DNA of 64,000 nucleotides from Candidatus Babeliales bacterium (GTDB lineage: Bacteria; Babelota; Babeliae; Babelales; JANWKD01), in assembly GCA_963762115.1 (NCBI GenBank), contig CAVXJH010000005.1, positions 113,812 to 177,811 of the forward strand. The letters run 5' to 3'. A program made the position numbers and the translations under genes. Below are positions 34,807-57,599 of the stretch, piece after piece (position 1 is the stretch's first letter; every line of letters starts with the position of its first letter). The notes below the pieces were generated by a model that did not search any database, was not told where the DNA came from, and saw only the letters and a list, made by a program, of their open reading frames with translations.

Positions 34807-34846
34807 GACTGGCCTGCCAGGCATTTCCTTCAGAAATGCCTGGCGT
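34807..34846. repeat. tRNA-CCA-linked palindrome plus att core TGGCGT
   Basis: GACTGGCCTG-CCAGGCATTTC-CTTCA-GAAATGCCTGG-CGT. Confidence 0.85.
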
Positions 34847-35032
34847 TACCTAGTAGAGACAGCCCTTAACCATGAGCTCGAATTTAGCACTGGTGTGCAA
34901 GTCATAAAAACCGTTTGTTCTAGCTTAAATATTGAAATTAATAAATAATAATTTGCTCTATTTTATTTTGCTTTTTTTGCCATCTCTTGCTAAAATATAC
35001 TAAAACTGGCATAATTTAAGTGAGTAGTATAT

Positions 35033-35395
35033 ATGAAACACAAACAACTAATTTGGATTGGTTCTAGCAAAAAAGACCTTAAAGATCTTCCTGATGAAGT
35101 TATAGACACTATGGGATATGGGCTCTACCTCGCACAGAAAGGTGAGCAGCATGAAAATGCTAAGGTGCTCAAAGGCTTTGGAAGCGCTGGGGTTCTTGAA
35201 ATAAAAGAATCTGATGCAGCTGGCACCTATCGAGCTGTTTACACAGTTACTATGCCTGAGGTAGTATTTGTATTACATGTATTTCAAAAAAAGTCTAAAG
35301 AAGGAATTAAAACACCGCAACAAGATATAAAACTTATAAAAAGTAGACTTAAATGTGCTCAAGAAATTTATAAAGAAAAATTTAAAAAGAAATAA
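35033..35395 (+). CDS. RelE/HigB-like toxin (Gp49/DUF891 type)
   Basis: WIGSSKKDL..LP, LKGFG.AGV.EI, TYRAVY, VLHVFQKKS. Confidence 0.88.
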   Translation: MKHKQLIWIGSSKKDLKDLPDEVIDTMGYGLYLAQKGEQHENAKVLKGFGSAGVLEIKESDAAGTYRAVYTVTMPEVVFVLHVFQKKSKEGIKTPQQDIKLIKSRLKCAQEIYKEKFKKK

Positions 35396-35400
35396 GTGTT

Positions 35401-35829
35401 ATGAAAAAGAATAATGATTATATCATAAGTTCAGGTAATGTATTTGCTGATCTTGGTCTTTCAAATCCAGAAGAAAGACTTGCAAAAGCAGAATTAGCAC
35501 GTCAAATTAATAACATTATTAAGCAAAAAAAACTTACTCAAGTTGCCGCAGCTGAACTGCTGGAAATAGATCAACCAAAAATATCTGCTCTAAGCACTGG
35601 AAGATTATCAGGCTTTTCTCTCGAAAGACTTTTTCGTTTTTTAAATATCTTGGGCCAAGATATTACCATTAAAGTTACGCCAAAAACACGAACAAAACAA
35701 AAAGCTGAAGTTAGAGTCAATGTTCCCAAAACAAAGAAACCTGTAATGATAAAACAACCTCAAGCTGAATCTTCAAGCGTTCGAGCTCTTCATGCAAAAA
35801 AAAAAATAAATAGTTCTCGCTATGGCTAA
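35401..35829 (+). CDS. XRE-type HTH antitoxin
   Basis: SSGNVFADLG, LTQ..AA.LL.IDQPKIS, FSLERL; follows the toxin. Confidence 0.88.
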   Translation: MKKNNDYIISSGNVFADLGLSNPEERLAKAELARQINNIIKQKKLTQVAAAELLEIDQPKISALSTGRLSGFSLERLFRFLNILGQDITIKVTPKTRTKQKAEVRVNVPKTKKPVMIKQPQAESSSVRALHAKKKINSSRYG

Positions 35830-36115
35830 AGAATTAAAAGAATTTAAACATTATTTTTCAGAAAAGCTCAAAGATCTTAGGTATGCAATTGCGTATCTTA
35901 ATGAAGCATTAGCAAATGAGGATAAGCGAGTTTTATTAGTAGCATTAACAAATGTTTGTGAAGCTCAAAAGGGAAATATAAAAACAAAAAGTTTCCAAAA
36001 ATATCTTGAAAAACGCTTGGATAAAGACGAGATTACCGAAATTGAAAGACAAGCACTGTTAGAAATTGATATTCTTCAATCTATGCAAAATTCAATATCA
36101 GACGCTATTGACTGA
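35822..36115 (+). CDS. Degenerate addiction-module antidote-like protein
   Basis: LKD..YAIAYLNEAL...LLVAL..V.EAQ.G; HTH part missing. Confidence 0.55.
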   Translation: MAKELKEFKHYFSEKLKDLRYAIAYLNEALANEDKRVLLVALTNVCEAQKGNIKTKSFQKYLEKRLDKDEITEIERQALLEIDILQSMQNSISDAID

Positions 36116-36232
36116 TTAACATTGGTTTTATCAAATTTAAATTTTAATGATTTTTTTGCATACTCATTTTTATTGAGTGAATAAGGGCAAACACCGGATC
36201 GCATACAATGGTTGGGCCATAATAAGTGTGCA

Positions 36233-36583
36233 TTAAGGGATTACTATAACCATAAATGATGGAAAATGCAGAGGGAAATGGGTATATAATGGAATATAGT
36301 AATGATGCAATTTTTTGGGTAAAAAAACTGCAATGATTCCTGAAACCGCAAAAAGACCTGCAGCAGTCAATCCTGAATATGGCAATTTACTTTCATAGGC
36401 AGTACATCCGGCAATGCTAAAACTAAGTGCTGTTGCTGCCAAGAGTATGTTGGTAATTTTTATGCTTAGCGTTGTTTCTTCTTCTGCAACTTGACAGTCA
36501 CTTTCATGAGCGAGCAAAGTATAATTCTGACCGCTAAAGCATAAAAATATAAAAATTAACATTCTTAATTTGAACGTTGTCAT
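36233..36583 (-). CDS. Small secreted membrane protein
   Basis: Signal peptide plus two TMs. Confidence 0.6.
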   Translation of the reverse strand: MTTFKLRMLIFIFLCFSGQNYTLLAHESDCQVAEEETTLSIKITNILLAATALSFSIAGCTAYESKLPYSGLTAAGLFAVSGIIAVFLPKKLHHYYIPLYTHFPLHFPSFMVIVIP

Positions 36584-36585
36584 AT

Positions 36586-37149
36586 TTAGTTACTTTCACT
36601 CGTATTGTGTTTTTTGAGAAATCGCTGAGCCTTCTCTTTATCTTTTTCAAAACCACTAATTTTGTTTACTGTATAAAAATAGCTTATATCTTCATTACTA
36701 TAATTTAACAATATTCCAATGAGATAATGATTTAAATCCTTTTGAGGATTACGAGCATATTTTCTTGCAAATATATGTTCATACTCCTCAAGCATTAATG
36801 CCTGTTCTTTGCCTTCAGAGGTATAAAGAATTAATGAGGCTTCTTCCGGCTTATTATTAAAATTAAGGCCATTTTTTACTTCAATACTATGTATTCCTAA
36901 ATTTTCGATAGGTAAAAATTCTTTTGCAATATATGAAAAATCTTTTTTAGTTCCCCAATATACTTTTTTATACCCAGCAATCATACATTTTATTCGACAA
37001 TTAACATTGTCATTACCACTCAAATCATCATGTACATTTCTTGCTGCCCCGCAACATTGTTCCGAAGGAATGAAATCTTTATGCCAAATATTTGAAGGAA
37101 AATAAGCAAAGACAGCTGAGCTTAAAATGAATAATAGAAATTTTATCAT
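36586..37149 (-). CDS. Secreted hypothetical protein
   Basis: Signal peptide; IG.LL.Y..EDI..FY motif. Confidence 0.65.
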   Translation of the reverse strand: MIKFLLFILSSAVFAYFPSNIWHKDFIPSEQCCGAARNVHDDLSGNDNVNCRIKCMIAGYKKVYWGTKKDFSYIAKEFLPIENLGIHSIEVKNGLNFNNKPEEASLILYTSEGKEQALMLEEYEHIFARKYARNPQKDLNHYLIGILLNYSNEDISYFYTVNKISGFEKDKEKAQRFLKKHNTSESN

Positions 37150-37406
37150 AAAGTTTATCTTATTTTTAATATGTTTTTTTATTTTAAAAGTAGCAATACT
37201 GATGCATTAAGTAAAGATCATTTAATTAAAACAAGGTCCTTTTATTCTTTTTTATTGCCAATATAGGCTCTTCAAATAAGCCAACCATGTTAAATTATTA
37301 CTGTTTTAACCTGTAAAGCTATAGGCATCTAGAACTTTTTTGATTTTCTGTTAAACTAATAAATGATTATTAATCATAAAAATAACAAATTAAATGAGGT
37401 TATAAC

Positions 37407-37808
37407 ATGGATTATCACAGATTTTTGGCTATATTAGCTGTCTTTTTCTTATTTCAGAATACTTTTCCGGGAAATGATGAAGTTTCACAAACTTCCTTCA
37501 ATACAAGATCAGAAAACCCTATACAAGCCCCCGGTCCTATTATGATCCCATTAAACAATAGTCTCCCATTTTATTCCGTCTCAATCGCTAAAAAATTGTA
37601 CAACGGTACTCCCTTAACTCAAGAAGAAAAAAGATTTCCCAAAATAGCATTAGGCCTTACTTGTGCTATAAACGCACTTTTTATACCTGCCTGTTTAAAA
37701 ATGCAAGGTCACCCCGTTTCTGTCGGTAATGTTGCTGCGTTAACTATTGTTGCATTGCCAATAACTTGGTTCTTTTCTGAATTTTTAAATTGTGAATGGG
37801 ATGATTAA
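37407..37808 (+). CDS. Small secreted membrane protein
   Basis: GAGG RBS, signal peptide, two C-terminal TMs. Confidence 0.65.
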   Translation: MDYHRFLAILAVFFLFQNTFPGNDEVSQTSFNTRSENPIQAPGPIMIPLNNSLPFYSVSIAKKLYNGTPLTQEEKRFPKIALGLTCAINALFIPACLKMQGHPVSVGNVAALTIVALPITWFFSEFLNCEWDD

Positions 37809-37863
37809 AAAATAAGAAATTTTAATAACACATTATTTCGGTCTAATACTACTGGGAGAGTTT

Positions 37864-38340
37864 CTTGCATTTATTTCCAAATCGCATATACTCTCCGATT
37901 GTAGCAATCAAAGCACTCTCTTCATCAAAAGGAACAATCATGTTCTTGTTCAACAGAACGCAGATTCTGTCTCTCACCTCACAAAATCAAATTACATCCA
38001 TCCTCATTACCTTTCGAATTTCCGAAACATATATCGGGCTCGATGAGCAGGAAAGCTGCTACACAGCTTAATTCCAATTAATTTGTTCCTACATTCAAGA
38101 ATGGTTTTATAAAACCATAAAACTAAAAAAAGAAATTAAGATATTTCTAAAATATCTTGAGGAGATTTATTTATATGAAGAATCCCCCTAGAGTAAATAT
38201 ATTGTTATCTGTTGATGATAAAAACGATTTACTGATTTTTTTGTGATACTTATCGCCGTCGATAGAAGAGTTAATGCAAAACCAAGAAATAAACCTAAAG
38301 CAAAGAAATAGGCTCGCAATCGCGGGCCTTGTTTCTTGTG
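37864..38340. repeat. Conserved block (copy 1) homologous to 45425-45930, including a frameshifted copy of the small basic ORF (from 38175)
   Basis: Colinear high similarity over ~470 bp. Confidence 0.9.
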
Positions 38341-38424
38341 AGCAATTGCGCTACCTTTGAATACATTCGAACATCGCCTGTTAACATATGCTTTACCATG
38401 TGTGCGTTATCATTCTGAGTGTGT

Positions 38425-39213
38425 TTAAGAATACTCTTGTTGAAAGCCCGCATTATGCTCGGCGATACTTTCTTTTAATTTATTAATCTCAGATTGTATG
38501 TATCCATTAAGTGTTCTAGATGAGCGAGGAGTCGTTTTAGCATATAAAGCATTAATTTGTTGTATATTTTTATTACGTAAAGCTTCTCTTATTCTTATAT
38601 CTTCATCACGACTGTTTTTTACAATCTGAATCATTTCTTCAGCCTGTGCACAAGATGCTTCCATTTTAACTCGTGTACTATCCATTGCTTTCATATACAG
38701 TCTTTTTTCTTCATTACCATCAACCCTTTTTGCTTTCATAAATACTTGAAGCCTCTTAATTTGTAAAAAGAATTTATCTTCCTCATCAAGATTTTGTAAT
38801 AAGAGTAATCTATGTTCTCTTTTTTTGGTTTTTAATAAAAAATCAATATCACGAATTATAAGTCGTCCTATAAAATTATTGGTAGTTTCATGTAATTCTG
38901 ACAAGTGAGAAAATCGTGCCGGTACTTTTGATATTTGTGTGAGGTAACAAAGTAATCCATATGTTGATTCCAAAGATAGCATAGACTCAGAGAATGAAGC
39001 TTGTGGATTTTTAAAAAATATATTTTGTTCATCTGAATGTAGCCCTCTGTTAAGTAATGCATCAGCAAAACAGTTTAGAAGATGCAAGTCTTCAAAAAAT
39101 TCTTTTTTATGCGAAGACTCTTCTCTTGAGGAATTTTCGAGTTGCTTTTCCATTGCAGCTATGGATGTTGAAATAAATAATATAAAAAAGAATGTTTTTT
39201 TGAATGTAAACAT
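38425..39213 (-). CDS. Secreted hypothetical protein (cargo)
   Basis: Signal peptide then AMEKQ; helical. Confidence 0.75.
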   Translation of the reverse strand: MFTFKKTFFFILFISTSIAAMEKQLENSSREESSHKKEFFEDLHLLNCFADALLNRGLHSDEQNIFFKNPQASFSESMLSLESTYGLLCYLTQISKVPARFSHLSELHETTNNFIGRLIIRDIDFLLKTKKREHRLLLLQNLDEEDKFFLQIKRLQVFMKAKRVDGNEEKRLYMKAMDSTRVKMEASCAQAEEMIQIVKNSRDEDIRIREALRNKNIQQINALYAKTTPRSSRTLNGYIQSEINKLKESIAEHNAGFQQEYS

Positions 39214-39464
39214 AAAAACCTTTCATGAAAAAATATTGCAGCAATAATGTAGGTCGAATATATCACAATTTTTTCTTTATGTTAGCATGCCGCTATTTTT
39301 TTTATTCGGTTCAAAAAATAAACATGATTCAAAGTTACTTATACCATATTTACGCATATTAAAAATAAGCTCGCAATCGCGGGCCTTGTTTTTTGTGATC
39401 AATTACACTACCTTTGGATACCTGAGAGCATCATATGTCAACGCATATTCACAGAATGCAACGA

Positions 39465-40583
39465 ATGATCGACACCATAGTTTTTACTTTAACCAAAGAC
39501 AAATTTCACATCATTCAGCCCGATAAATTCCAACCATCTGCAACACTTTTGTTATCGCAGTTTTCTCACACAATTCAAGCAAAACAGAACCCAACACAAA
39601 AAGAACTCCTGAAAGGGGAATGCAAAAAACCTCGCTTAACATTGCAAAAGCGCATTAACGCTCAAGGATTGTTTGATCTCATGCTGAAAGCTGAACTCTC
39701 TTTGCCAAAGCTTTTATTTGGCAATAATGTCGATGAGCTTTGCTATAAAGATTTTCCGGCAATCATCAAAAAATTAGTTGTTGTGTTGCAAGAAATGGGC
39801 ATTGAAACAACAGCAAAAGCTCTAGAGAATGCACCGCTCTCTAGCGTTCATTATGCAAAGAATATCCCCCTAACTGACGGCTCTACGCCCTATCATTTCA
39901 TCAACAAAATTAAAGAAGCAAATATCAAAATCTCTCTCGACACAAATCAAACTGATTATCGCAACGATGGCCACAGTTATAAATGGCACTGCAATTCATA
40001 TGAAATTGTTTTCTATGACAAGATTTTGGATCTTGAAAAGGCCAAGAAGAGCGGCAAAAGATCGATTGATAAAGAGAGTGGAATAAACCATTCGCTTTTC
40101 CCCTTTTTCAGGAAAAAAAAGAAATTTGAGATCCTTCGGATGGAAGTTCGATTAAACAAGCGACAGAAAATAAAACAGCTGTTTAAAACATTGGGAATAA
40201 AATCGGATTTGACGCTGAAGAAATTGTTCAAGCCTGCCATTGCAAAGAAAGTGTTGTTGCATTATTTGGATGAACTGGAATCAAAGCGACCTCTCATACT
40301 TGATTATAAATCAGATAATGAAACAGCATTGCTTGCTGATTTAGTTTTCTATAATCCTGAGTTAAGCCCAACGAAGATTTTGCAGCTGTTTGGATTAAAG
40401 CAAGCGCTCAATGTTATGAGCCCTAGGGAGTTAAGAATGTTGTTTGCAAAGTATAATCAAAGATCCTGGTATAAAATTATGGCTGATGCAAATAAAGTTA
40501 AGTTGCCGATTGTGCAACAACCTTTAGATGTTATTCGTAAACAATTGATTGTATTTAAATCCTTAAAATACTTAAATCTATAA
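39465..40583 (+). CDS. Replication initiator, phage/plasmid gpII/X (CRI)-like, copy 1
   Basis: MIDT, SLPKLLFGNN, FYDK, LRMEVRL; start chosen to match copy 2. Confidence 0.75.
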   Translation: MIDTIVFTLTKDKFHIIQPDKFQPSATLLLSQFSHTIQAKQNPTQKELLKGECKKPRLTLQKRINAQGLFDLMLKAELSLPKLLFGNNVDELCYKDFPAIIKKLVVVLQEMGIETTAKALENAPLSSVHYAKNIPLTDGSTPYHFINKIKEANIKISLDTNQTDYRNDGHSYKWHCNSYEIVFYDKILDLEKAKKSGKRSIDKESGINHSLFPFFRKKKKFEILRMEVRLNKRQKIKQLFKTLGIKSDLTLKKLFKPAIAKKVLLHYLDELESKRPLILDYKSDNETALLADLVFYNPELSPTKILQLFGLKQALNVMSPRELRMLFAKYNQRSWYKIMADANKVKLPIVQQPLDVIRKQLIVFKSLKYLNL

Positions 40584-41243
40584 CATTTCTCGTGGGTCAA
40601 GTTCTTTGTTCATCTGCTTTGACATTGCTTTTTTACATTCTTTTAATTGAGGCATGATAAAGCTTGCTCGATTAATTATATTCATTAATTGTTCATATGA
40701 ATAACTTGAGTATTGATCAGTATAAATCTCATTTTTTACTAATCGATATAAATCCATTTGGTGCTCACGTGCTTCATTCGCATATTTATCAACTTCAGAT
40801 GAGATAAATAAAGCAGATTCCTCATGATAATTGTGAAAAGAAGCAATATTATTTAACCCAAGGAAATTATCAGCATCGTCTATTCTTTCTAGACACATTC
40901 TAATCAAATTTCTTAAATCTTCTGCCGTGATTAGTGTATCGTTAGCTTGTTTCTCTATTATTTTTCTGTTTATAGTTTCAAAAATTATATAAAGTGATCC
41001 AGCTTCTCGCAGTAGTTGATAAAGTTTAGGATAAATTTCATATAAATTTTTAGTCCTAATCTGTAAATGCAAATAATTTCGTTGCATTTCAAACTTTATT
41101 TTTTCAGCTTCTTTATTAATTAAGATTACAGCCCTTTTATAAAGCAAATAATTACAAATAACTCCTGTAAATATAGCAAAGATTGCTCCATTTATTACTG
41201 GAGTTAATTGATAAGTTTCTATAAGTGAAAGAATATAATTCAT
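40578..41243 (-). CDS. Hypothetical protein with N-terminal TM
   Basis: 221-aa ORF. Confidence 0.7.
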   Translation of the reverse strand: MNYILSLIETYQLTPVINGAIFAIFTGVICNYLLYKRAVILINKEAEKIKFEMQRNYLHLQIRTKNLYEIYPKLYQLLREAGSLYIIFETINRKIIEKQANDTLITAEDLRNLIRMCLERIDDADNFLGLNNIASFHNYHEESALFISSEVDKYANEAREHQMDLYRLVKNEIYTDQYSSYSYEQLMNIINRASFIMPQLKECKKAMSKQMNKELDPREML

Positions 41244-41291
41244 TATTATATTTTCTGTTTGAGAATAATGGAAATGGTTTACTGCAGTTAA

Positions 41292-41699
41292 TCATGAAAT
41301 TAAACATCTATTTTCTGATTTATCAGTTTTTGGATCTTGTGGAGGGTGAATAAATCCTGTTTCAGCTATTTGTTGTGCAAAAATAATACCAATATAATCT
41401 TTTTTTATTATATTTTTTTCAGAATCAATAATATTCATCTTTGTTAAAGCAACTTCCACGTCTGGATCAAATTCAATTGAAGAACATTTATATTTCATAA
41501 TCAATTGCATCAAGAGGTCTGATTTTTTCTCAACAGGCCAATCTAAAATCTCAAAATCTTTATTAAAATTGGCAACAAAAACTTTAAAGTTTTCATTTGC
41601 ATGAACATCCTCAACAGTTTTTTTTGCTCGCTCCATGGCTAAACATTCTGTCAAACTTAAACTAAAGATTACAAAAAGCATCATTTTTTTTATAACCAT
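41292..41699 (-). CDS. Secreted hypothetical protein ending in a CaaX-like motif (CLIS)
   Basis: Signal peptide then AMER; C-terminus RCLIS*. Confidence 0.7.
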   Translation of the reverse strand: MVIKKMMLFVIFSLSLTECLAMERAKKTVEDVHANENFKVFVANFNKDFEILDWPVEKKSDLLMQLIMKYKCSSIEFDPDVEVALTKMNIIDSEKNIIKKDYIGIIFAQQIAETGFIHPPQDPKTDKSENRCLIS

Positions 41700-41843
41700 G
41701 AATTATTCCTTATAAGTACATTATGAATGAAATAGAATCATGCACAGCATACAAAAAAAATTAATATAAATCATCTACTATCCCTCCCCCTTTTCGTGAT
41801 ATGCTAGGCACGTTTTAACATAACCCACTAAGCAAGAGCAATC

Positions 41844-42005
41844 ATGAAAGCAATTTTAATCGCCCGTGTAAGCACAGAAGAACAAAAAGAAGCTGGCAAT
41901 TCACTCCCAGCACAAGTAGCTCGTCTGGAGAAATACTGCCAAGTCAAAGATTTTCCAATTATTAAAAGCTTTAGCTTTGATGAAAGCGGTTATAAAAACC
42001 TGTGA
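41844..42005 (+). pseudogene. 5' fragment (52 codons) of large serine recombinase
   Basis: Nearly identical to 48930-49086; identity ends abruptly at 42000. Confidence 0.92.
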
Positions 42006-42019
42006 GAATTCCCCTGTGA

Positions 42020-42262
42020 TTACCAGAACCTTTTTTTAGTGAATGCTCTTCCAGAACCGGATTTAAGATATTTTTCAAATGCTACAGCCTGATCAAGATT
42101 ATTAAAAGTAATCGACGAAATAAGTTCCCATGGTCTGAATTGAGCAGTGTGAGCTGACCCGCCTGAATTATGAGTTTTAAGACGTTCTTGAAGATTGTCA
42201 GTATGGCCAATATAAGTTTGTTTGGAAAAATTTAGAGATCGCAAAAGATATACGTAATACAT
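42020..42262 (-). CDS. Small GIY-YIG nuclease (YhbQ/UPF0213-like)
   Basis: YVYLL, TYIGHT.NL.ERL..HN.G, RPW, FEKYLKSGSGR. Confidence 0.9.
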   Translation of the reverse strand: MYYVYLLRSLNFSKQTYIGHTDNLQERLKTHNSGGSAHTAQFRPWELISSITFNNLDQAVAFEKYLKSGSGRAFTKKRFW

Positions 42263-42281
42263 AAAACCTTTTTTGAAAAAA

Positions 42282-42416
42282 GGGCCGTGCCAGCCCGCCT
42301 CCGTTAAAACTTCGGCGCGCAGCTTTCGCCTTTGTTATTAATACTTCTTTATAAAATATAAATCATTTTAAAGAGAAGACTGGCCTGCCAGCTGAAGCCT
42401 TGGCGAAAGCTGGCGT
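42282..42416. repeat. REP-like palindromes, tRNA-CCA-linked hairpin and att core TGGCGT
   Basis: GCCCGCCTCCGTTAAAACTTCGGCGCGC; GACTGGCCTG-CCAGCT-GAAGCCTTGGCGAA-AGCTGG-CGT. Confidence 0.85.
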
Positions 42417-42532
42417 TACCTAGTAGAGGCAATCTTAAACCATGAAGTTGAATTTAGCACGGGTGTGCAAGTCATAAAAACCGTTTGTTCTAGCTTAAAT
42501 ATTGAGATTGACAAACAATGATTTGTAATATT

Positions 42533-43915
42533 TTATTTTGCTTTTGAAAGTTCATTCTGTGCACTTGTGCTTGGTGGTAAAGATACTTTTTTAGTAGGAA
42601 TAGGAAATTTTGATAAATTATTTACAGAAGAACTTGTTGCCATAAGGATTTTGGCATTTATATTTAATACTTCTTTGCCATCACTTTTTTTATCGTAAGG
42701 CTTATCAGAATTAGATAAAGTTAATGCGGAAGAATTTTGTAATTGACAAAAGTAGGCAAACATTAAAGGATATGAATAAAAAACATTTTCTTGAAATCCA
42801 ATTTCATGGATTTTCCATACATGTGCATTATTAAGAATACTTTTTGAATCTGATTTTTCTTTTATATCTTCTAAAAAACTGCATGCTCGTAAAATATTTG
42901 CCTTTATTATCATTAACTTTATAGCCTTAAATAATTGTTTATTATAAGTGAATATTTGAAAGCTATTTTCAAATTTTAACTTATTTGGATAATCGGCTAC
43001 CACAAAGCCATAGTTATCTAAATTTTCTAAAGTTTTATTATCAAACAATTGTGATTTTGTCATTGGTTTTGCATCAAAGTCAGTATAAACAAAACATAAA
43101 TCTCTATTTTGTCGAGTAGATTCTTCAGCTATAATAACTCTTAATAGATCTGCACGAAAAAAAACCGGAATTTCAGAAGAAAAAATTTCAGGATTTTTCT
43201 TAACTCTGGTTAATGTTCTTATATCGTTTAGTTCTATTTTGGCTATTTTGCTCCCATGTGCTGCAACTTTTTGATTGATGAGAAGTTGAGTATTTTCAAT
43301 CATTTTATCGGCTGTAAAAGAACTATCAAACCACAAATTGATAGTTCCTTCGGGATTTTTTTTTGACCACATTATAATTGTATCCAAAAACTGTAATCCA
43401 AAATTATTTTTATTATTTGATGGGTATATATAAGTTTGATCAATAGTAGCTTGCCTATTGATCCACATTAAATTAATCGAATATTGTTTTGGATAATTTT
43501 TATGTTGGGTGAAAAAAAATTGTTTTATTTTTGATCCCAAAGAACAATTTTCTTTATGGTCGGAACAAGATTTTGATGAACCATTAGAGTGCTTGTTCGG
43601 TTGATCGGCGTAATATTCTTCTTTTAAATAAGCTCCTATGGAAGTTCCCAATATTATAGGCAACAGAAAGTTTCTTGATGAATAATCATTATTATCTTTT
43701 TCTTGGGATGCAAGAATTACAAGAGGTCGAGAAGAGCGCTTAGTAGAATATAATCTTGAGAGAAGCCTAGAATGAAAGAGATTATTAGTAATCTGCTTTG
43801 CATTGAACGGTGCTAATCGGTTGAATTGCCATATGCTGCTACGTTTATTCATCGCGAAGGCAGATTGATTTAATAAACAAAGTGATAACTTTATAATTAG
43901 TATTTTTTTTATCAT
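42533..43915 (-). CDS. Secreted DxD glycosyltransferase-like effector
   Basis: INLMWIN, W...NP...INLWFDS, FFRADLLR, VYTDFD; signal peptide. Confidence 0.7.
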   Translation of the reverse strand: MIKKILIIKLSLCLLNQSAFAMNKRSSIWQFNRLAPFNAKQITNNLFHSRLLSRLYSTKRSSRPLVILASQEKDNNDYSSRNFLLPIILGTSIGAYLKEEYYADQPNKHSNGSSKSCSDHKENCSLGSKIKQFFFTQHKNYPKQYSINLMWINRQATIDQTYIYPSNNKNNFGLQFLDTIIMWSKKNPEGTINLWFDSSFTADKMIENTQLLINQKVAAHGSKIAKIELNDIRTLTRVKKNPEIFSSEIPVFFRADLLRVIIAEESTRQNRDLCFVYTDFDAKPMTKSQLFDNKTLENLDNYGFVVADYPNKLKFENSFQIFTYNKQLFKAIKLMIIKANILRACSFLEDIKEKSDSKSILNNAHVWKIHEIGFQENVFYSYPLMFAYFCQLQNSSALTLSNSDKPYDKKSDGKEVLNINAKILMATSSSVNNLSKFPIPTKKVSLPPSTSAQNELSKAK

Positions 43916-43936
43916 AGTGATTAGTTTTAAATTAAG

Positions 43937-44266
43937 TTAAACCTTTTTAGATTTTGTTTTATTTACCGATGTCTTTTTAGGTGACAAAGAAATTTTAATT
44001 GAATAACCCAAAGCATCAGCAACCTGAGCTAATTTTCCAACAGATGTTGTGGTGTATCCACCCTTTTCTAACCGTGCAATAGCAGGTTGTTGAAGATGAA
44101 GGCGCTCAGCTAGTTCTGATTGAGAATAACGTGCTTTTTTTCTTGCCTTTATAAATTTTTCAAGTAATGCAAATTCTGGTTCCAATAAGTCATATGCTTT
44201 TTTCACTTCTTCATTTTGCAAAGCTCTTTTTTTGAATGCTTCAAAGCTTGGTCTTTTATTCTTCAT
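43937..44266 (-). CDS. HigA-like HTH antitoxin
   Basis: ARKKA..SQSELAERL..QQPAIARLEKG. Confidence 0.88.
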   Translation of the reverse strand: MKNKRPSFEAFKKRALQNEEVKKAYDLLEPEFALLEKFIKARKKARYSQSELAERLHLQQPAIARLEKGGYTTTSVGKLAQVADALGYSIKISLSPKKTSVNKTKSKKV

Positions 44267-44588
44267 TTTTTACCTCTTTCATACGACGTATTGCTATTTC
44301 CATTTCTCTTGGTGGAGTTTTTTGTGTTTTCTTTATAAATTCGCTCAGTACTATTACAATTTTCCCTTTTATAATACAAAAAGGAGCCCGAGCGATACCT
44401 TCAGGGCCTTTTACTCTAATCTCAAAAAGTCCTTTTTTTAATGGCTTAATATGCGGCATGCCTAATTCATCAGGGCCCATTTTTTCAATAAGTTCAGCTA
44501 TTTTTAAAAACTTAACCTTTAGATGTATCGGCCATTCATCAATACCCTTTTCAACCTTAGTACTATAAAACTCAACTTTCCAGCTCAT
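44256..44588 (-). CDS. HigB/RelE-like toxin (Gp49 type)
   Basis: Start MSWKVEFY; LGMPHIKPL..GLFEIR, FIKKTQKTP..E. Confidence 0.88.
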   Translation of the reverse strand: MSWKVEFYSTKVEKGIDEWPIHLKVKFLKIAELIEKMGPDELGMPHIKPLKKGLFEIRVKGPEGIARAPFCIIKGKIVIVLSEFIKKTQKTPPREMEIAIRRMKEVKNEE

Positions 44589-44732
44589 ATAAATCTCGCT
44601 TTTTTTAACAAAACACCTTATAATTATAACAAATATATTATATTTTCGCAATATAATTAGCAACAACTTAAGAAAGCCAGAAGCCGTAATATTAAGCAAA
44701 AATAATTTTGATAGAGTAAAGGAATAAACAAA

Positions 44733-45410
44733 ATGCTTCATGATATAGAGAAAAAAATAATAATTTTAAAAAATAGTTCCCCCAAATCAATACCAATGGC
44801 TATCTCTCCAAATATAGATCTTGCTAGAGCAACCGTATTAAGAGAATGTATTTTTAAAAAGATTGAAGAGCTAGCAGAGAGCATACATGAAATGTGTAGC
44901 AAGAATAGATTAGTATCTGCTATGTCCTTACAAAGGGCATTGATGGAAACCCAAGCATTATTTTGGGTATTCTTGAAAAAAATTGAAGAGGCAATCAAAA
45001 CAAATAAATTGGATGATTTTAAGAACTTTTTAACCAAAGCTTTATCTGGTGCGCGTTCAGATGTAGCGACTAAGAAATTTGGTAGGCCACAATCAAACAA
45101 TGCATTAACATATATTGATCAAGTGAATAAAATAATACCTGGTTATCGAGAATGTTACGATCTTCTTTCTGAATTTGTACATCCCAATTCTGCAGGTGTG
45201 CGTAATGTATATAATAAACTTGATTGGAATAATAGAGAAATTCATTTTGGTGATAATAGAGAAAAAATAAACATTGATTTTGTTATAAAGAATCTTGATA
45301 TTTCTCTTGATTGGTTTATTAGTGAATATAACCGATCTGCAGATTTACTTAACCAATATAGTGTTTTAAGCTTTACTAATTTTGATAATAATGAGAAACA
45401 ATTAAGATAG
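44733..45410 (+). CDS. Helical hypothetical protein, HEPN/DUF5677-like
   Basis: R.LME and Y..LSEFVHPN motifs. Confidence 0.55.
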   Translation: MLHDIEKKIIILKNSSPKSIPMAISPNIDLARATVLRECIFKKIEELAESIHEMCSKNRLVSAMSLQRALMETQALFWVFLKKIEEAIKTNKLDDFKNFLTKALSGARSDVATKKFGRPQSNNALTYIDQVNKIIPGYRECYDLLSEFVHPNSAGVRNVYNKLDWNNREIHFGDNREKINIDFVIKNLDISLDWFISEYNRSADLLNQYSVLSFTNFDNNEKQLR

Positions 45411-45424
45411 CTATATAAAACTTC

Positions 45425-45930
45425 CTTGCAAATATTTCCAAATCGTATAATATCTTCCTTTGTAGTAATCAAAGCACTCTCTTCATCAAAGGAACAATCA
45501 TGTTCTTGCTCAACAGAACTCAGATTCTGTACTCCAACTCACAAAATCAAATTCCATCCAGCCTCATTATCTTTCAAACATCTGAAACATATATCGGGCT
45601 CGATAAGCAAGAAAGCTGCTACACAGCTTAATTCCAATTAATTTGTTCCTAATTCCTAGAATGGTTTTTATAACCATAAAAATTAAAAAAAGAAATTAAG
45701 ATATTTCTAAAATATCTTGAGGAGATTTATTTATATGAAGAATCCCCCTAGAGTGAATATACTTTTGTCTATTGATGATAAAAAACGACTTACTGATTTT
45801 TTTGTAATACTTATCGCCGTTGATAGAAGAGTTAATGCAAAACCAAGAAATAAACCTAAAGCAAAGAAAAGCGCAAAAGCAAAAACTAAGCGCAAAGAAA
45901 TAGGCTCGCAATCGCGGGCCTTGTTTTTTA
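45425..45930. repeat. Conserved block (copy 2) upstream of rep
   Basis: Homologous to 37864-38340. Confidence 0.9.
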
Positions 45931-45977
45931 TAATCAATCGTATTACTCTTGAGTTTTTGAAAAGCCTTTTATTTTAG
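45735..45977 (+). CDS. Small basic protein upstream of rep
   Basis: GAGGAG RBS, MKNPPRVNILL, K/A-rich; homolog at 38175. Confidence 0.65.
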   Translation: MKNPPRVNILLSIDDKKRLTDFFVILIAVDRRVNAKPRNKPKAKKSAKAKTKRKEIGSQSRALFFIINRITLEFLKSLLF

Positions 45978-46003
45978 CAATGCTTTAAAGAACACAACAG
46001 CGA

Positions 46004-47122
46004 ATGATCGACACCATAGTTTTTACGTTAACCAAAGACAAGTTCAACATCATTCACCCCGATAAATTCCAGCCCTCTGCAACACTTTTGTTATCAACGC
46101 ATTCTCACACAATCCAAGCAAAACAAAACCCAACACGAAAAGAACTCCTGAAAGGGGAATGCAAGCCTCGTTTAACATTGCAAAAGCGCATTAACGCTCA
46201 AGGGTTATTTGATCTCATGTTAAAAGTTGAACTTTCTTTGCCAAAGCTTTTGTTTGGCAACAATGTTGATGAACTTTGTTATAAAGATTTTCCAGCGATC
46301 ATCAAAAAATTAGGTGCTGTGCTGCAGGAAATGGGTATTGGGACAACGGCAGAAGCCCTAGAGAATGCGCCGCTCTCTAGCGTTCATTATGCAAAGAATA
46401 TCCCTCTCACTGACGGCTCTACGCCCTATCATTTCATCAACAAAATCAAAGAAGCGAATATCAAAATCTCTCTAGATACCAATCAAACGGATTATCGCAA
46501 CGATGGCCACAGTTATAAATGGCATTGCAATTCATATGAAGTTGTTTTCTATGACAAGCTTCTGGATTTGGAAAAAGCAAAGAAGAGCAGCAAGAGATCA
46601 ATTGATAAAGATAGTGCAATGAACCATTCGCCCTTCCCCTTTTTGGAAAAAAAAAAGAAATTTGAGATCCTTCGCATGGAAGTTCGATTGAACAAACGAC
46701 AAAAAATTAAACAGTTATTTAAAACGCTGGGAATAAAATCAGATTTGACGTTGAAGAAGTTGTTTAAGCCTGCCATTGCAAAGAAAGTTCTTTTGCATTA
46801 TCTCGATGAGCTTGAATCAAAACGACCTTCATTGCTTGATTATAAATCAGATAATGAAACAGCATTGCTTGCTGATTTAGTTTTCTATAATCCTGAGTTA
46901 AGCCCAACGAAGATTTTGCAACTCTTTGGATTAAAGCAAGCGCTGAATAGTATGAGCCCTAGAGAGTTAAGAATGCTGTTTGCAAAATACAATCAAAGAG
47001 CCTGGTATAAATTGATGGCTGATGCAAACAAGGTAAAATTACCCAATTCACATCAGCCATTAGAAATTATTCGTCAGCAATTGATCATTTTTAAGCAATT
47101 CAAAATAACCAAGAATGTTTAA
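46004..47122 (+). CDS. Replication initiator, phage/plasmid gpII/X (CRI)-like, copy 2
   Basis: Same motifs as 39465; highly similar paralog. Confidence 0.75.
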   Translation: MIDTIVFTLTKDKFNIIHPDKFQPSATLLLSTHSHTIQAKQNPTRKELLKGECKPRLTLQKRINAQGLFDLMLKVELSLPKLLFGNNVDELCYKDFPAIIKKLGAVLQEMGIGTTAEALENAPLSSVHYAKNIPLTDGSTPYHFINKIKEANIKISLDTNQTDYRNDGHSYKWHCNSYEVVFYDKLLDLEKAKKSSKRSIDKDSAMNHSPFPFLEKKKKFEILRMEVRLNKRQKIKQLFKTLGIKSDLTLKKLFKPAIAKKVLLHYLDELESKRPSLLDYKSDNETALLADLVFYNPELSPTKILQLFGLKQALNSMSPRELRMLFAKYNQRAWYKLMADANKVKLPNSHQPLEIIRQQLIIFKQFKITKNV

Positions 47123-47128
47123 AATTTA

Positions 47129-48730
47129 TTATTTACGCACAACATTATAAACATATTTATTTTTATGATGAGGTCCTTGCTCAACCATGGGAGATTTGCC
47201 ATTTACATAAACAAACGTACTTGGTAAAGGCAAATCAGAATCCTTGTTCTGTTTAATAAATTCAACTTGTGCTCTGAAATCTTGGTTTATCTCGCAAAGA
47301 GCTTCCATTAGTTGCCGATTCAATTCCTCTATACTTGTATGCATATCATCAATATCTATATCTTTTTTGAGTTCAATCCAAAATTCAAGTTGTTGATCAA
47401 GTTTATCATTTTCAAATTTATTAAATGCATAACGATTTATTTTTTCATATAAACCAGGTACTTTTAAAAGAGCGCGTTCAAGATCATCATACATTAAATT
47501 AGCACCATTAAACGTTAATGCGTCATCACCACGACCATATAAACACAAGATAGGCAAACTGGTGCGTGGCGTTAACTCAAAACCATGTTTTTTAAGAAGA
47601 TCTTTAACAACACTGACTTTAAATACCTTACCTTTATCCCCAAGATCGTAACGAACTCTTGGTGACACGCGTGATTCATCAAGGTCAGTAAATAACAAGC
47701 TGCCATCTTCTGTTTCTTCGATATAATCAAGTAAAGGATTGAAATGGAAAAAAATTGGCGTACCATCGAGAGAACCTAAGAGCTCTTTTTTAAACTGAGG
47801 ATTTTCTTTGCACAATAATTGCAATTTTTGTTCAAATTCTGTTTGCTGTGCAATATTAATACGCAAATCACTAGCGCCATAAGAAGAATATACTTCTTTA
47901 ATACCGCTTTTTTTAATACTATTGTAGACATTCTCAGACATTGCTTCACCACCAACAACAATAGTAATATCATAATCACGCAAATCAAACGGTGCATTTT
48001 CTACAAATTTTTTCATGTGTGGTGGATATCCTGCAATCACATAACGTTGACCTGGACCAATATCTTTGAGCGCATCATATAACTTATCAATGTCAGGACC
48101 AATTGATAATATTAGTTGACTGCCTGTAAGCGCATATGTTGATGTCATACCCGTTGCCCATGTACCTAGTGCAAACATGTTGCAAAAGATATAGGGCTTA
48201 TCGCCTAATGCAGCTTTACTTGCTACACGAATCCATGCTTTAACATTTTCCATCTCTTGATGACCGCGTACCCATTTAGTAGGTTTTCCAGTTGTACCAG
48301 TAGAAGTATCAATTTGTCCTTGCAAAGGAAGTTTTCCAAATAATAGTGTTTGTTCAATAGTATATTTCTTAATATAATTTGATTTGCTCATCAGAGGAAC
48401 ATTTTCTAAAGAATCAGGCACTCCTGGGGGACAGTTGTTATCAACAAAATCTTTATAAGCAGGAACATTTCTATATGCCTTCAAAAATATTCTTCTCGCC
48501 TTCAATTGCGAAAGGAAAAATAACGTCTTTTCAGGGGCATGGGCGAACAGAGAAGGATAGCGCACTGAAACTGAAGAAAGTACACTCGATAATTTTCCAA
48601 TAGCAGTATCGCGAACTTGAAACAGCATATCTTGAACGTCGCAAGATTTATCAGAAGAACAAATACTGATATTTTCCATTGTAAGAAAAAGCAATGTGAT
48701 AATTATTTTCTTTGTTATAGATAGTTTCAT
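47129..48730 (-). CDS. Phenylacetate-CoA ligase-like (ANL superfamily) protein with signal-like leader
   Basis: AYRNVPAY, TSTGTTGKP, GGE, YGASD, RYDLGD.G, GR.DD. Confidence 0.85.
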   Translation of the reverse strand: MKLSITKKIIITLLFLTMENISICSSDKSCDVQDMLFQVRDTAIGKLSSVLSSVSVRYPSLFAHAPEKTLFFLSQLKARRIFLKAYRNVPAYKDFVDNNCPPGVPDSLENVPLMSKSNYIKKYTIEQTLLFGKLPLQGQIDTSTGTTGKPTKWVRGHQEMENVKAWIRVASKAALGDKPYIFCNMFALGTWATGMTSTYALTGSQLILSIGPDIDKLYDALKDIGPGQRYVIAGYPPHMKKFVENAPFDLRDYDITIVVGGEAMSENVYNSIKKSGIKEVYSSYGASDLRINIAQQTEFEQKLQLLCKENPQFKKELLGSLDGTPIFFHFNPLLDYIEETEDGSLLFTDLDESRVSPRVRYDLGDKGKVFKVSVVKDLLKKHGFELTPRTSLPILCLYGRGDDALTFNGANLMYDDLERALLKVPGLYEKINRYAFNKFENDKLDQQLEFWIELKKDIDIDDMHTSIEELNRQLMEALCEINQDFRAQVEFIKQNKDSDLPLPSTFVYVNGKSPMVEQGPHHKNKYVYNVVRK

Positions 48731-48929
48731 TCTTTTTTGCCTCTTGAAAATTTATATCTGAAATAATTTAAAAAATAAAATAACTAATTAATAATATTAT
48801 TATGAATGATATATAAAAAAAATCAATAATCGTCCTTATAGGACTCTATTTACAAACTATCTACCCTCTCTCCACCCTTCATGATAAGCTATAGAACATT
48901 TAAATAATACCATAACTATGAGTACTATC

Positions 48930-50384
48930 ATGAAAGCAATTTTAATCGCTCGTGTAAGCACAGAAGAACAAAAAGAAGCTGGCAATTCTCTTCCAGCACA
49001 AGTAGCTCGCCTAGAAAAATACTGCCAAGTCAAAGATTTTCCAATCATTAAAAGCTTTAGCTTTGATGAAAGTGGTTATAAAAACCAACGAGAAGCATTT
49101 GATGCAATTTTAGATTTCGTCCTAGAGCAAAAAGAAAAAGTAGCCGTATGCTGCGACAAAGTAGATCGCTTGTCGCGAAATATATTCGATAAACGAGTTT
49201 CCACGCTCTATGAAAAGGCATTGCAAGATCAACTAGAGTTACATTTTGTTTCTGATGGACAAGTTATTAACAGCCGCATTTCAGCCGTTGAAAAATTTCA
49301 ATTTGGGATCAGTTTAGGATTGGCAAAATATTATTCTGATGCCATAAGCGATAATGTTAAAAGAGCCATAGAGCAAAAATTGCGCAAAGGCGAATGGATT
49401 GCCAAAGCGCCCTATGGTTATAAAAATATCCTTCTAGGGGATAAAAAAGATATCTGTGTTGATGAGTATGCAAAGCACATTGTGCACAAAGCTTTTGAAT
49501 TATATGCAACGGGAGCTTTCTCTTTTGAGCTTTTATGCAAAAAAATGAAAGAAGATCATAACATTGTGTGGAGTGTGAGTTATATTGATAAAGTTTTTAA
49601 TAACCATTTTTATTATGGCGTTATGGTCATTAAAGGCCAACAGTATCCTCACAAATATCCACCCATTATTTCTCAAGCACTTTTTGAAAAGGTTCACCTC
49701 ATGAAAAAAAGCCTTAATAAAAAACAAAGTAGATATGCAGGAAAGCCTTATCAATATCGTGGGCTTTTGCGTTGTGATGATTGCGGATTTGCCATTACAC
49801 CAGAAAAGCACAAAGGGCATGTGTATTATCATTGCACAGAATTCAAAGGCAAACATGGCGCAAAATGGCTGCGAGAAGAAGCAATTACTGAACAATTAGG
49901 AGCTATTTTTAAAAGCTTACAAATGCCTGAAGATGTTTTAAAGCAGCTTTCTGAAACATTAACTGAAGTGCATGAAAACAAAGCTGCCTTTCAAGCAAAA
50001 CAATTTGATGCACTTACCAGGGAACAAAAAGAAGTCACGAAAATGATGGATAATTTATACCTTGATAAACTCAAAGGGAGAATTACTGAGAGTGCGTATG
50101 ACAGATTTTACCAAAAGTTCAGAGATCAAACCACCGATATTTCTATTAGATTAGAGCAATTACAAGAAGCAGAAGATAACTACTATATTACCGTGAAATA
50201 TCTGCTAGAGCTAACAACTCGAGCTTATGATTTATTTATGGGTTCGGAAGTGGAAGAAAAAAGGCAATTAATCAAACTTGTATTATCGAACTTGAGACTT
50301 AAGGGTGAAAACATCGTCTACGACGCGCATCAGCCCTTTGATTTGATACTAAAAAGTACTGATGAACAACTATGGCGTCCCTAA
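48930..50384 (+). CDS. Large serine recombinase (integrase); stop codon inside tRNA-Glu
   Basis: ARVSTEEQ, DRLSR, PYGY, Zn ribbon (CDDC..HC), coiled coil; ends EQLWRP*. Confidence 0.95.
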   Translation: MKAILIARVSTEEQKEAGNSLPAQVARLEKYCQVKDFPIIKSFSFDESGYKNQREAFDAILDFVLEQKEKVAVCCDKVDRLSRNIFDKRVSTLYEKALQDQLELHFVSDGQVINSRISAVEKFQFGISLGLAKYYSDAISDNVKRAIEQKLRKGEWIAKAPYGYKNILLGDKKDICVDEYAKHIVHKAFELYATGAFSFELLCKKMKEDHNIVWSVSYIDKVFNNHFYYGVMVIKGQQYPHKYPPIISQALFEKVHLMKKSLNKKQSRYAGKPYQYRGLLRCDDCGFAITPEKHKGHVYYHCTEFKGKHGAKWLREEAITEQLGAIFKSLQMPEDVLKQLSETLTEVHENKAAFQAKQFDALTREQKEVTKMMDNLYLDKLKGRITESAYDRFYQKFRDQTTDISIRLEQLQEAEDNYYITVKYLLELTTRAYDLFMGSEVEEKRQLIKLVLSNLRLKGENIVYDAHQPFDLILKSTDEQLWRP

Positions 50385-50450
50385 GGGGATTCGAACCCCT
50401 GTTTTCGCCGTGAAAGGGCGGTGTCCTGGACCAGGCTAGACGATAGGGAC
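50373..50450 (-). tRNA. tRNA-Glu(TTC), integration target
   Basis: Cloverleaf GTCCCTA..TTC..TAGGGAC-G-CCA. Confidence 0.95.
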
Positions 50451-50495
50451 GCATATTTTTTATGTCAAAAAAGGTGATTTCTTAGTCTCGTGTTA

Positions 50496-50585
50496 AAGAC
50501 TGGCCCCTACTACGCCAAAGCTACGAAGGGCAGGCTTGCCAGTCGAAGTTTGCCGAGCCGGAAGGCCCGGATAAACGAAGACTGG
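50496..50585. repeat. Nested REP-like palindromes attached to the tRNA-Lys CCA end
   Basis: AAGACTGGCC..CTACGCCAAAGCTACGAAGGG..GCCAGTCGAAG..CGAAGACTGG. Confidence 0.8.
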
Positions 50586-50658
50586 TGAGCCGCGATGGAT
50601 TCGAACCATCGACCCACAGCTTAAAAGGCTGTTGCTCTACCAACTGAGCTAGCGGCTC
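50583..50658 (-). tRNA. tRNA-Lys(TTT)
   Basis: GAGCCGC..TTT..GCGGCTC-A-CCA cloverleaf. Confidence 0.95.
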
Positions 50659-50961
50659 TCATTCTTAAATAGATTAAGAATAGATTTCGAAATCAATGAC
50701 ATAATACTAGTTATTTCAACTATCTTTGTCAAGAAATTAGTAGAAAAAAATGCCTTTTACTCTATTTTCTATCATAATAAACTGAATAATATAATTTATT
50801 TAGCATCATAAAAATTACTCATCTTTAAGAGTGCTTTTTTTACTAAAGATATTTGACTTTTAAATAGCTAAAAAACAATTTTTATTGAATTATAACTCTT
50901 ATTATATTACCATGCCCCTAATAAAAACATTTAAATTATTATCTTCAAAAAAAGGGATACA

Positions 50962-52220: not shown

Positions 52221-52229
52221 AGTAGAGCA
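52221..52229. other. Bacterium/chloroplast junction
   Basis: The bacterial ORF and the plastid tRNA are both cut here. Confidence 0.85.
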
Positions 52230-52289
52230 GTCTGGTAGCTCGCAAGGCTCATAATCTTGAAGTCGTAGGTTCAAATCCTACTCCCGCCA
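52222..52289 (+). tRNA. trnfM: Plastid-type tRNA-Met(CAT), probably trnfM, missing the 5' acceptor strand
   Basis: D arm, CAAGG-CT-CAT-AA-TCTTG and T arm present; the 5' partner of TCCCGCC is absent. Confidence 0.85.
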
Positions 52290-54880: not shown

Positions 54881-55393
54881 CCACTCGAGATGGGAGTGAT
54901 TCTACAAGCGAGTCTGAGGGTTACGAGAGACCAATGTCAGTGGCTTCGAGGTCCGTCGAATATAAAGTCCTGGAATAGAGAAAAAGTTTTTTTATAAAAC
55001 AAGCAAAAAGGATTCCTAAAGATCATGTTTTTTTACACCCATTAGCTTTGGGGTGTTGTCTACCCCTAAGGGCCTTTACCACTGTACTAGCGTTTTGAGT
55101 CTTGTAAGGGGCCTTATCAGACCCTTCAGCTTTTTGCTTTAGCCTCTTGGGTTATTGCATTGCTTTAAGATTCTCAAATGAGAATCTATGCTGATTAAGA
55201 TTGTACTTCAGTACAATGACAATGCTAAAGGGGCCCCTCCAACACCATCTCTGATGCCTACAAGACCCCAAAAGCTTACGCTTCTTACTTCTGCCTCTTG
55301 GGTCTGGGAACACCCTCTCTGATATCTTTAAGTTTGTAATATAGACGCAAAAACTGCTTTAGTTAAAAGAGATTGTACGTTAGCATGCTGGTT

Positions 55394-57527: not shown

Positions 57528-57599
57528 CTCCTCAGGTAGGACTTGAACCTACGACCAACCGGTTAACAGCCGGTCGCTCTACCACTGAGCTACTAAGGA
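57528..57599 (-). tRNA. trnN: tRNA-Asn(GTT)
   Basis: Cloverleaf, no encoded CCA. Confidence 0.93.

Follow-up and report, generated by a model that had tools for sequence, protein, structure and literature searches.

We analysed a 64,000-nucleotide stretch of DNA from a Candidatus Babeliales bacterium (contig CAVXJH010000005.1, positions 113,812–177,811; hereafter the window), in which an integrative element of 7,962 bp occupies the CCA end of a tRNA-Glu gene. The integrase of this element is a large serine recombinase (LSR), whose gene runs through its own attachment (att) site: the inserted copy ends within the tRNA sequence, while a 34-codon tail that would complete it in a free circle lies without a start codon at the far end of the element. 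Sequence and comparative data indicate that this tail swap is real and that it occurs in a large family. The same data outline its architecture, namely the att positions and reading register, an empty site in a relative, a crossover within GCGT and fusions of LSRs to tails in tandem arrays.

The integrase gene and its attachment site

The features on which the argument turns are as follows.

48918..50384, + strand: LSR, integrated short form, 488 residues, ending WRP* (Pfam, fold matches)
50373..50378, + strand: attR core TGGCGT, with the crossover probably within 50375–50378 (GCGT; attL/attR offset identity)
50373..50450, − strand: tRNA-Glu(TTC), the insertion target, restored after integration (ARAGORN, Rfam)
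42411..42521, + strand: attL core and start-less 36-codon tail (WR plus 34 residues), the would-be C-terminus of the LSR in the circle
42411..50378, + strand: element 2, the 7,962-bp integrative element from attL (42411) to attR (50373), with TGGCGT at both ends and homologous loci in the same order
34841..34948, + strand: outer attL and sibling tail (35 residues) of element 1, an older tandem sibling of element 2 (an empty site in genome G003 joins 34846 to 50373)

The open reading frame (ORF) of the LSR (48918–50384) ends ...STDEQLWRP*, and homologues start at Met5 (48930). Pfam recognizes Resolvase (PF00239, 7.5e-22) and Recombinase (PF07508, 3.4e-10), and Zn_ribbon_recom (PF13408, 4.4e-5) at 24.2 bits, under the cut-off of 25.3. 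Across the family R12 and V13 are invariant and S14 is at least 90% conserved; C286, C289, C306 and H313 are invariant as well, and the coiled-coil region appears as long helices (338–418) in the predicted model. The enzyme is assigned to the serine family by Pfam and fold, and the catalytic domain of tyrosine recombinases was not found in it. Its closest named homologues and loci belong to Babeliales (Dependentiae), with locus L001 at 95% identity.

The gene converges on tRNA-Glu, where TGGCGT at 50373 is in frame and its tryptophan codon, TGG, is the antisense of the tRNA CCA. The same TGGCGT recurs at 42411 and 34841, opening frames of 36 and 35 codons. The frame from 42411 reads WRYLVEAILNHEVEFSTGVQVIKTVCSSLNIEIDKQ* with its stop at 42519–42521; five codons (AGC CTT GGC GAA AGC) lead back from it to the previous stop, with no ATG, GTG or TTG. 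Joined to this frame, the LSR is predicted to have a long form of 521 residues (485 + WR + 34). An earlier annotation of this DNA (the sequence-only reading) had described the LSR end, the frame at 42411 and its sibling at 34841–34948 with coordinates and translations that are all correct. Its proposal that attP lies inside the integrase ORF, such that excision would exchange the final proline for a 34-residue tail, is borne out by the in-frame TGGCGT at both ends.

The target before insertion can be seen in a genome of the same family, G003 (loci L242 and L305), in which window-like sequence 34369–34846 is joined to 50373–50739 via a shared TGGCGT. Self-BLAST, tblastn and repeats show that the CCA end of tRNA-Glu in the window carries a tandem of two related islands; because the empty site joins 34846 to 50373, 34841 is the outer attL of a two-element array and 42411 the inner attL. 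In genome G001, of the same genus, a different 4.3-kb element occupies the same site and carries a tail that is 80% identical.

Geometry and targets across the family

We examined 160 homologue loci (80 from genomes and 80 from metagenomes, duplicates counted), 148 of which reach the C-terminus at more than 45% identity; 79 viral-contig loci are excluded from every count. TGG stands at the Trp codon in 140 of the 148 and the frame reads into antisense tRNA in 126, the 3′ end called by ARAGORN falling exactly at the LSR Trp codon in 107. The targets are tRNA-Asp (31), Glu (26), Asn (26), Arg (16), Gln (10), Leu (1) and Pro (1). The target changes 18 times on a tree of 100 leaves, compared with a mean of 59 after shuffling; retargeting is therefore repeated, yet clade-structured. 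The integrated LSR forms stop 3 to 100 residues from the Trp (median 4), and element lengths are 3.9–11 kb.

Position of the crossover

The 6-bp core TGGCGT is shared by attL and attR, with a precise empty site in G003. Over 37 loci, attL and attR agree at offsets 2–5 in 34–36 cases, compared with 14 at offset −1 and 18 at offset 6. The 16 tRNA-Asn loci are sharper still: all 16 agree at offsets 2–5, and only 8 and 5 at offsets 0 and 1. This agreement places the exchange inside GCGT (50375–50378 and 42413–42416), with the integrase Trp codon supplying the CCA of the tRNA. The crossover thus falls within TGGCGT, where the sequence-only reading had put it, and the offsets narrow it to four bases. 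The chromosomal flank of the att site has no consensus. Matching the tRNA arm against the tail arm gave 0.376 at a shift of 5, 0.368 at 6 and 0.362 at 0, and mirror symmetry of attP is not clear.

At tRNA-Asn loci such as L036, L063, L064 and L070, TGG is often absent from attL and present in attR; here the integrase Trp codon seems to provide an encoded CCA for a tRNA gene without one.

The tail at a distance and as a natural C-terminus

A hidden Markov model (HMM) of five natural in-frame LSR tails, with the window excluded, found the frame at 42411 among 83,919 six-frame pieces at an independent E-value of 7e-4 and picked out many orphan tails as well; after one iteration, again without the window, 42411 scored 1.7e-8 and its sibling 3.3e-6. 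Pfam has no family for the tail. A start-less tail of 31–46 codons lies upstream on the same strand in 41 of the 66 loci with at least 9 kb of upstream flank, while matches on the opposite strand (3) or downstream (2) are few. An in-frame ATG stands upstream of only 9 of 47 tails, which suggests that the tail is normally translated solely by fusion. The tail profile matches 110 of the 261 genomes of the phylum and 209 protein representatives, and also occurs in Patescibacteria.

If the tail belongs to the enzyme, homologues should carry it as a natural C-terminus, as the sequence-only reading had foreseen, and some do. Among 150 listed tail matches, 145 have the tail at most 50 residues from the C-terminus, and in 27 an LSR C-terminus lies in frame upstream of it. 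One of these, P0206, ends WRYLVEIVLNHELEFSTGVQVIKTVCTSLKIEVDK, almost identical to the tail in the window. A few of the 120 best homologues end in non-tRNA tails; P0094 ends WSPLVDAFRNGKVEFTISLSHIQSTFSFLNASLQ. Long forms with visible context sit in tandem arrays, where a later element has inserted behind an earlier LSR. These fusions mean that recombination at the att site does yield an in-frame fusion, though not a cognate circle.

A second tail type, WxxxLxTLRTFxW, is fused at the Trp codon to LSRs of the family at L028, L050, L056, L180, L208, L225 and L052 and is also present at L203:7185 and L301, in tandem arrays where the context is visible. In several of these tails the T-loop motif TTCGAAC is displaced by 5 bp, standing at +22 where the tRNA has it at +17. 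Considered as a candidate for the tail of the window, this type was rejected, as it has no match there; it is likely to come from another LSR or element family, because further DNA separates the LSR from the tRNA in L050 and L225.

Coding constraint on the tail

For tests of constraint we used 47 unique tails, obtained from 51 nearest-upstream matches by leaving out the frameshifted L025 and merging three duplicates. Stops in frame occur in 3 of the 47, against 46, 46, 46, 47 and 28 in the other five frames. Over codons 11–31, which lie beyond 30 bp from the core, entropy by codon position is 1.28/0.80/1.56 (position 2 versus 3, Wilcoxon p 7e-5). The ratio of non-synonymous to synonymous rates (dN/dS) over the same codons is 0.20, compared with 1.7 and 2.4 in shifted frames; it was taken on 14 disjoint pairs, 9 of 23 pairs being left out as more than 35% divergent. 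Since a protein HMM favours open frames, a DNA HMM search was added, which gave 54 matches, 50 of them open and two of them new; its training set of 30 loci drew partly on the genomes that supplied the test loci, so it is frame-blind, not independent. Tail and LSR identities correlate over 46 loci (Mantel rho 0.41, p 0.0005), a correlation confounded by common host lineage.

The synonymous changes between the sibling tails from which constraint had originally been suspected (ACG/ACT, GAA/GAG) are present. In the window pair there are six synonymous and six non-synonymous differences on 21.8 and 77.2 sites, small counts that point in the direction of the family. The substitution pattern in the family indicates that the tail is under purifying selection at the protein level beyond the att arm, and hence that the tail matters.

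Predicted structures of the long and short forms

In the AlphaFold model of a natural long form, P0094, the tail forms helices at 484–491 and 501–510, and its blocks have a predicted local distance difference test (pLDDT) score of 86/86/79; the alignment behind this model included 24 tail-bearing fragments. In the model of the short form, the last five residues score below 50. The P0094 model matches the folds of the SPbeta, Bxb1, LI and phiC31 integrases, and most solved LSRs align up to model residue ∼468–478 (LI 452 to 468, SPbeta 533 to 470, phiC31 587 to 470 and Bxb1 486 to 478); the sequence profile reaches the end of A118 near position 465. Given where the solved LSRs end, the short form keeps the canonical fold and the tail is an addition to it, predicted to form two helices beyond the canonical zinc-ribbon domain, ∼12 residues after an invariant Pro-Phe pair.

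This family-invariant pair (473–474) maps near F532/F534 of the SPbeta integrase, a mapping made from range ends only. In SPbeta, F532 and F534 are described as lining the pocket for the recombination directionality factor (RDF) and as a directionality toggle, and the extreme C-terminus together with F532 is reported to control directionality (bioRxiv 2025.01.03.631226, accessible text).

Core genes of the elements

Two genes accompany the tail and the LSR.

45735..45977, + strand: conserved small ORF, 80 residues from the ATG at 45735, just upstream of Rep, in 41 of 47 elements
46004..47122, + strand: Rep-like protein, 372 residues, in 44 of 47 elements

The order of tail, small ORF, Rep, LSR and tRNA in element 2 recurs in homologous loci. 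The small ORF (45735..45977) has no match in Pfam or PHROG; helical and conserved as a core gene, it is a candidate for a helper/RDF or a replication-control gene. The Rep-like protein likewise has no direct match in Pfam or PHROG. Its ESM Atlas neighbours, at 0.96–0.97, include PF05144 (Phage_CRI) in 25–61% of members at a recognition value below the reliable range; as a lead, it is likely to be a rolling-circle initiator. The elements at tRNA-Asn, largely of Patescibacteria, also carry SpoVG (all 20) and, in 19 of 20 cases, an excisionase-like HTH_17 gene whose product matches phrog_66, 'excisionase and transcriptional regulator'. Neither gene is found in any of the other 27 elements, that of the window included.

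A proposed division of labour between the two forms

A free circle would make the long LSR, likely an efficient integrator; no other form would be on hand to insert the element in a new host. The inserted copy makes the short LSR, which would be the only form available for excising a single element and is likely to do so with the help of an element-encoded factor; excision would then rejoin the LSR with the 34-residue tail kept at the far end. Excision from the short-form state must be possible, because the LSR is intact over 440 codons in 46 of 47 integrated copies and Rep is retained in 44 of 47 elements. By analogy with the integrase IntP of myxophage Mx8, the tail may thus promote integration while the short form excises with a helper, a division of labour to which we give an even chance. 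The two forms of Mx8 IntP are reported to differ in activity.

The joint of 50378 to 42411 was not among the contigs of five low-depth runs, whose patchy coverage makes this no evidence either way. Free circular close relatives were found neither in plasmids (89 records, best 30–31%) nor among phages (261 records, best 31–32%); viral contigs gave no match with the single LSR protein and, with an alignment, one N-terminal fragment at 67% and otherwise distant LSRs. Several observations weigh against the proposed division of labour. No tail lies within 10 kb in 25 of the 66 loci, where longer elements or decay are possible, and the long forms in tandem arrays mostly carry the tail of another element (L045, L047, L052, L062, L050, L225 and L304). 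The AlphaFold models of the long and short forms differ in sequence and in alignment (predicted template modelling scores 0.50 and 0.39), and two solved chains align further, to 489 and 496, at root-mean-square deviations of 16 and 29. With its canonical fold complete, the short form could by analogy integrate normally, leaving the tail a possibly small effect. The element in the window also lacks the HTH_17 gene.

Alternatively, control could be of the on/off (suicidal) type, with a nearly or wholly inactive short form and excision dependent on the long form in trans, supplied by an incoming circle or by a tandem array that donates a tail. Such logic is described for SSV-type integrases (PMC8371274, accessible text) and suggested for DsiB, an LSR of Dehalococcoides islands (PMC3146451, accessible text); tandem arrays that regenerate long forms are common, and the tail is conserved and predicted to be ordered. 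However, the short form retains all domains of the solved LSRs, unlike the fragments of SSV Int, and at most family loci a single element, its ORFs intact, ends in antisense tRNA sequence. We regard on/off control as possible but doubtful.

The sequence-only reading had gone further, in suggesting a directionality switch that could replace a separate RDF; in its strong version, loss of the tail alone would turn the enzyme into an excisionase. The tail does begin beside the region that acts as directionality toggle in SPbeta, and none of the 27 non-Asn elements, including that of the window, has the HTH_17 gene. Nevertheless, the HTH_17 protein matching phrog_66 is encoded by 19 of 20 Asn-type elements that have this same tail, 41 of 47 elements, again including that of the window, carry the other conserved small ORF, and nothing of the fold of solved LSRs is missing from the short form; if that form excised constitutively, the element would moreover be unstable unless expression were silenced. 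The presence of the tail alongside a plausible RDF in one branch weakens the RDF-free version, which we judge unlikely. It is equally unlikely in its fullest form, in which, throughout a widespread CCA-targeting clade, the tail would dock at the RDF pocket and lock the circle-made enzyme in integration, insertion would remove the tail and permit RDF-free excision, and tandem insertion would re-lock and fix the earlier element through the donated tail.

The tail could instead be a degradation or stability tag, so that the swap would alter the level of integrase and not its chemistry. A mycobacteriophage repressor tag is a precedent for this idea. The stability switch that had been proposed for the window fits the C-termini of some Asn-type relatives: 11 of 20 such tails end in non-polar ssrA-like triplets (AYA, AFA, IFA), compared with 136 of 733 long ORFs of the genome of the window, these tails being related sequences from a different host group. 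It does not fit the window itself, where the tails end DKQ (element 2) and INK. Enrichment is not clear among the 27 non-Asn tails (9 of 27, p 0.08), none of which ends in Ala, and conservation lies in the internal helices (codons 4–31), not in the final residues. A tag is accordingly an improbable explanation. That the tail is only the DNA arm of attP, with no functional peptide, is largely refuted and very improbable: its first ten codons overlap the expected binding arm and a TTC...AAC motif is reminiscent of the tRNA T-loop, but codon periodicity and the low dN/dS extend to codon 31 (93 bp), past the 25–30-bp half-site, and nearly every copy keeps the frame open and in register.

The surrounding locus

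The remaining features of the two islands are listed below.

34841..42005 (end approximate), + strand: element 1, the older tandem sibling (self-BLAST, tblastn, repeats D1, D2, D5 and D13, Pfam)
35033–35829, within element 1: Gp49 and HTH (helix-turn-helix) pair
39435–40583, within element 1: its own Rep-like gene
41844–42005, within element 1: its LSR, broken off after codon 52
42020..42410, − strand: GIY-YIG gene (42020–42262; Pfam GIY-YIG 2.1e-15) and short palindromic repeat
42533..43915, − strand: cargo ORF, 460 residues, without family match (Pfam, PHROG scans)
43937–44266, − strand: cargo HTH gene (Pfam HTH_37, 6.1e-12), partner of the Gp49/RelE-like gene
44256–44741, − strand: cargo Gp49/RelE-like gene (Pfam Gp49, 1.4e-23), forming a toxin–antitoxin-like pair with the HTH gene
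44733..45410, + strand: cargo ORF, 225 residues, weak DUF5677 (Pfam)
47129..48730, − strand: cargo ORF, 533 residues, without family match (Pfam, PHROG scans)

By its motifs, the cargo ORF at 47129–48730 may resemble a phenylacetate-CoA-ligase-like adenylating enzyme, and that at 42533–43915, with a signal-like N-terminus and a DxD motif, may be glycosyltransferase-like.

The module at 42020..42410 forms the chromosomal (B) flank of the inner attL and occupies the place of the missing part of the element 1 LSR; a similar repeat lies directly 3′ of tRNA-Glu in L247. Element 1 probably arrived first, followed by the GIY-YIG module at the end of the tRNA and finally by element 2. At both att sites (34565–34840 and 42020–42410), a GIY-YIG gene accompanied by a short palindromic repeat (GACTGG/CCAG) lies immediately 3′ of the end of tRNA-Glu, and similar palindromic repeats occur 3′ of tRNA ends in many relatives and also between tRNA-Lys and tRNA-Glu (50490–50582). 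The position of the inner module at the cut of the element 1 LSR suggests a second type of tRNA-end-targeting element that competes for the site. Just upstream of the outer GIY-YIG gene (34400–34470, minus strand) a degenerate tRNA-like sequence can be made out by eye, with no call from ARAGORN or Rfam.

Promoter-like sites for tRNA-Glu and tRNA-Lys (50440–50468 and 50704–50732, minus strand) have 10 of 12 matches, total sites being near the shuffle expectation. They are directed into the LSR gene, and antisense read-through from them could therefore lower LSR expression when the element is integrated. Elsewhere in the same genome, a second LSR of the family lies at tRNA-Gln with a tail ∼9.7 kb away (G000:C3:125931-135679), and decayed LSR fragments and a tail lie near tRNA-Arg (G000:C5:2887-11113). 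The region 52700–63800 of the window is gene-poor, with many interspersed direct and inverted repeats (families D3, D4, D6, D7 and D9–D11) and four tRNA genes whose isoacceptors are present on other contigs too; a tRNA fragment lies at 52223–52281 (Rfam).

Relation to known systems and meaning

The att-in-gene layout is known from DsiB, Mx8 and SSV1; the novelty here is a variant within the serine family. A close counterpart is DsiB, a ∼540-residue serine recombinase whose 3′ end overlaps the att site and reads antisense into the RNA gene or a neighbouring island. In the Dehalococcoides ssrA islands dsiB always overlaps attL/attP, and its product, it was proposed, may reach full function only when the gene lies on the circle or behind a neighbouring island (McMurdie et al., 2011; PMC3146451, accessible text). 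There are distinguishable differences, however. The ssrA islands target tmRNA (ssrA), whereas the target here is a tRNA CCA end, that of tRNA-Glu, and they have a second small serine recombinase, DsiA, and a six-gene module including ParB and Mom; no DsiA/ParB/Mom-type Pfam matches occur among the main ORFs of the window element. The C-terminal part of DsiB is called divergent, with no conserved tail or selection defined in the accessible text (PMC3146451).

Mx8 IntP (Tojo et al., 1996) also has attP inside its gene, a tRNA target and a C-terminus altered by integration (PMC4383910, accessible text), but it is a phage tyrosine recombinase, unrelated to LSRs in fold and mechanism. The same source, Islander (2014), cites the Mx8 and SSV integrases as extending across attP and has serine recombinases as not known to target tRNAs. 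In the suicidal integrases of SSV1 and pTN3 a site within the integrase gene, again with a tRNA target, makes the split gene a directionality device; these archaeal tyrosine recombinases are cut into two large fragments (PMC8371274, accessible text), whereas here the loss is confined to 34 C-terminal residues, and every catalytic and DNA-binding domain is retained. With the phage-type LSRs (SPbeta, Bxb1, LI/A118 and phiC31) the family shares the architecture of catalytic, recombinase, zinc-ribbon and coiled-coil parts and a short shared core. It differs from them in the predicted two-helix tail, present only in the circle or tandem state, and in targeting the tRNA acceptor end without a conserved chromosomal arm on the 3′ side.

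That no characterized tail swap of an LSR was known, as the sequence-only reading had it, agrees with the literature searched, which left out subscription journals and supplements, so that absence from print is not established; the accessible portions of PMC12884075, PMC10111431 and PMC10083194 hold nothing on such a layout. Its claim to novelty is cut back by DsiB, for which the overlap of an LSR 3′ end with att and a circle/tandem hypothesis were published in 2011, and by the known C-terminal alteration in Mx8 (PMC3146451 and PMC4383910, accessible text).

How large serine integrases control directionality is a live structural question, and genome engineering counts these enzymes among its major tools. 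Two natural forms of one enzyme, 34 residues apart beside the direction-toggle region of SPbeta, make the question experimentally tractable. If the tail swap is as described, databases and mining pipelines that draw LSRs from integrated genomes would contain the short form, so that the wrong protein may be tested; an LSR clade that has moved to at least seven tRNA types, and that has no need of conserved sequence on one side of attB, would be worth exploring as a tool; and island finders that ignore serine integrases at tRNAs would miss a family whose tail profile matches 110 of the 261 genomes of the phylum.

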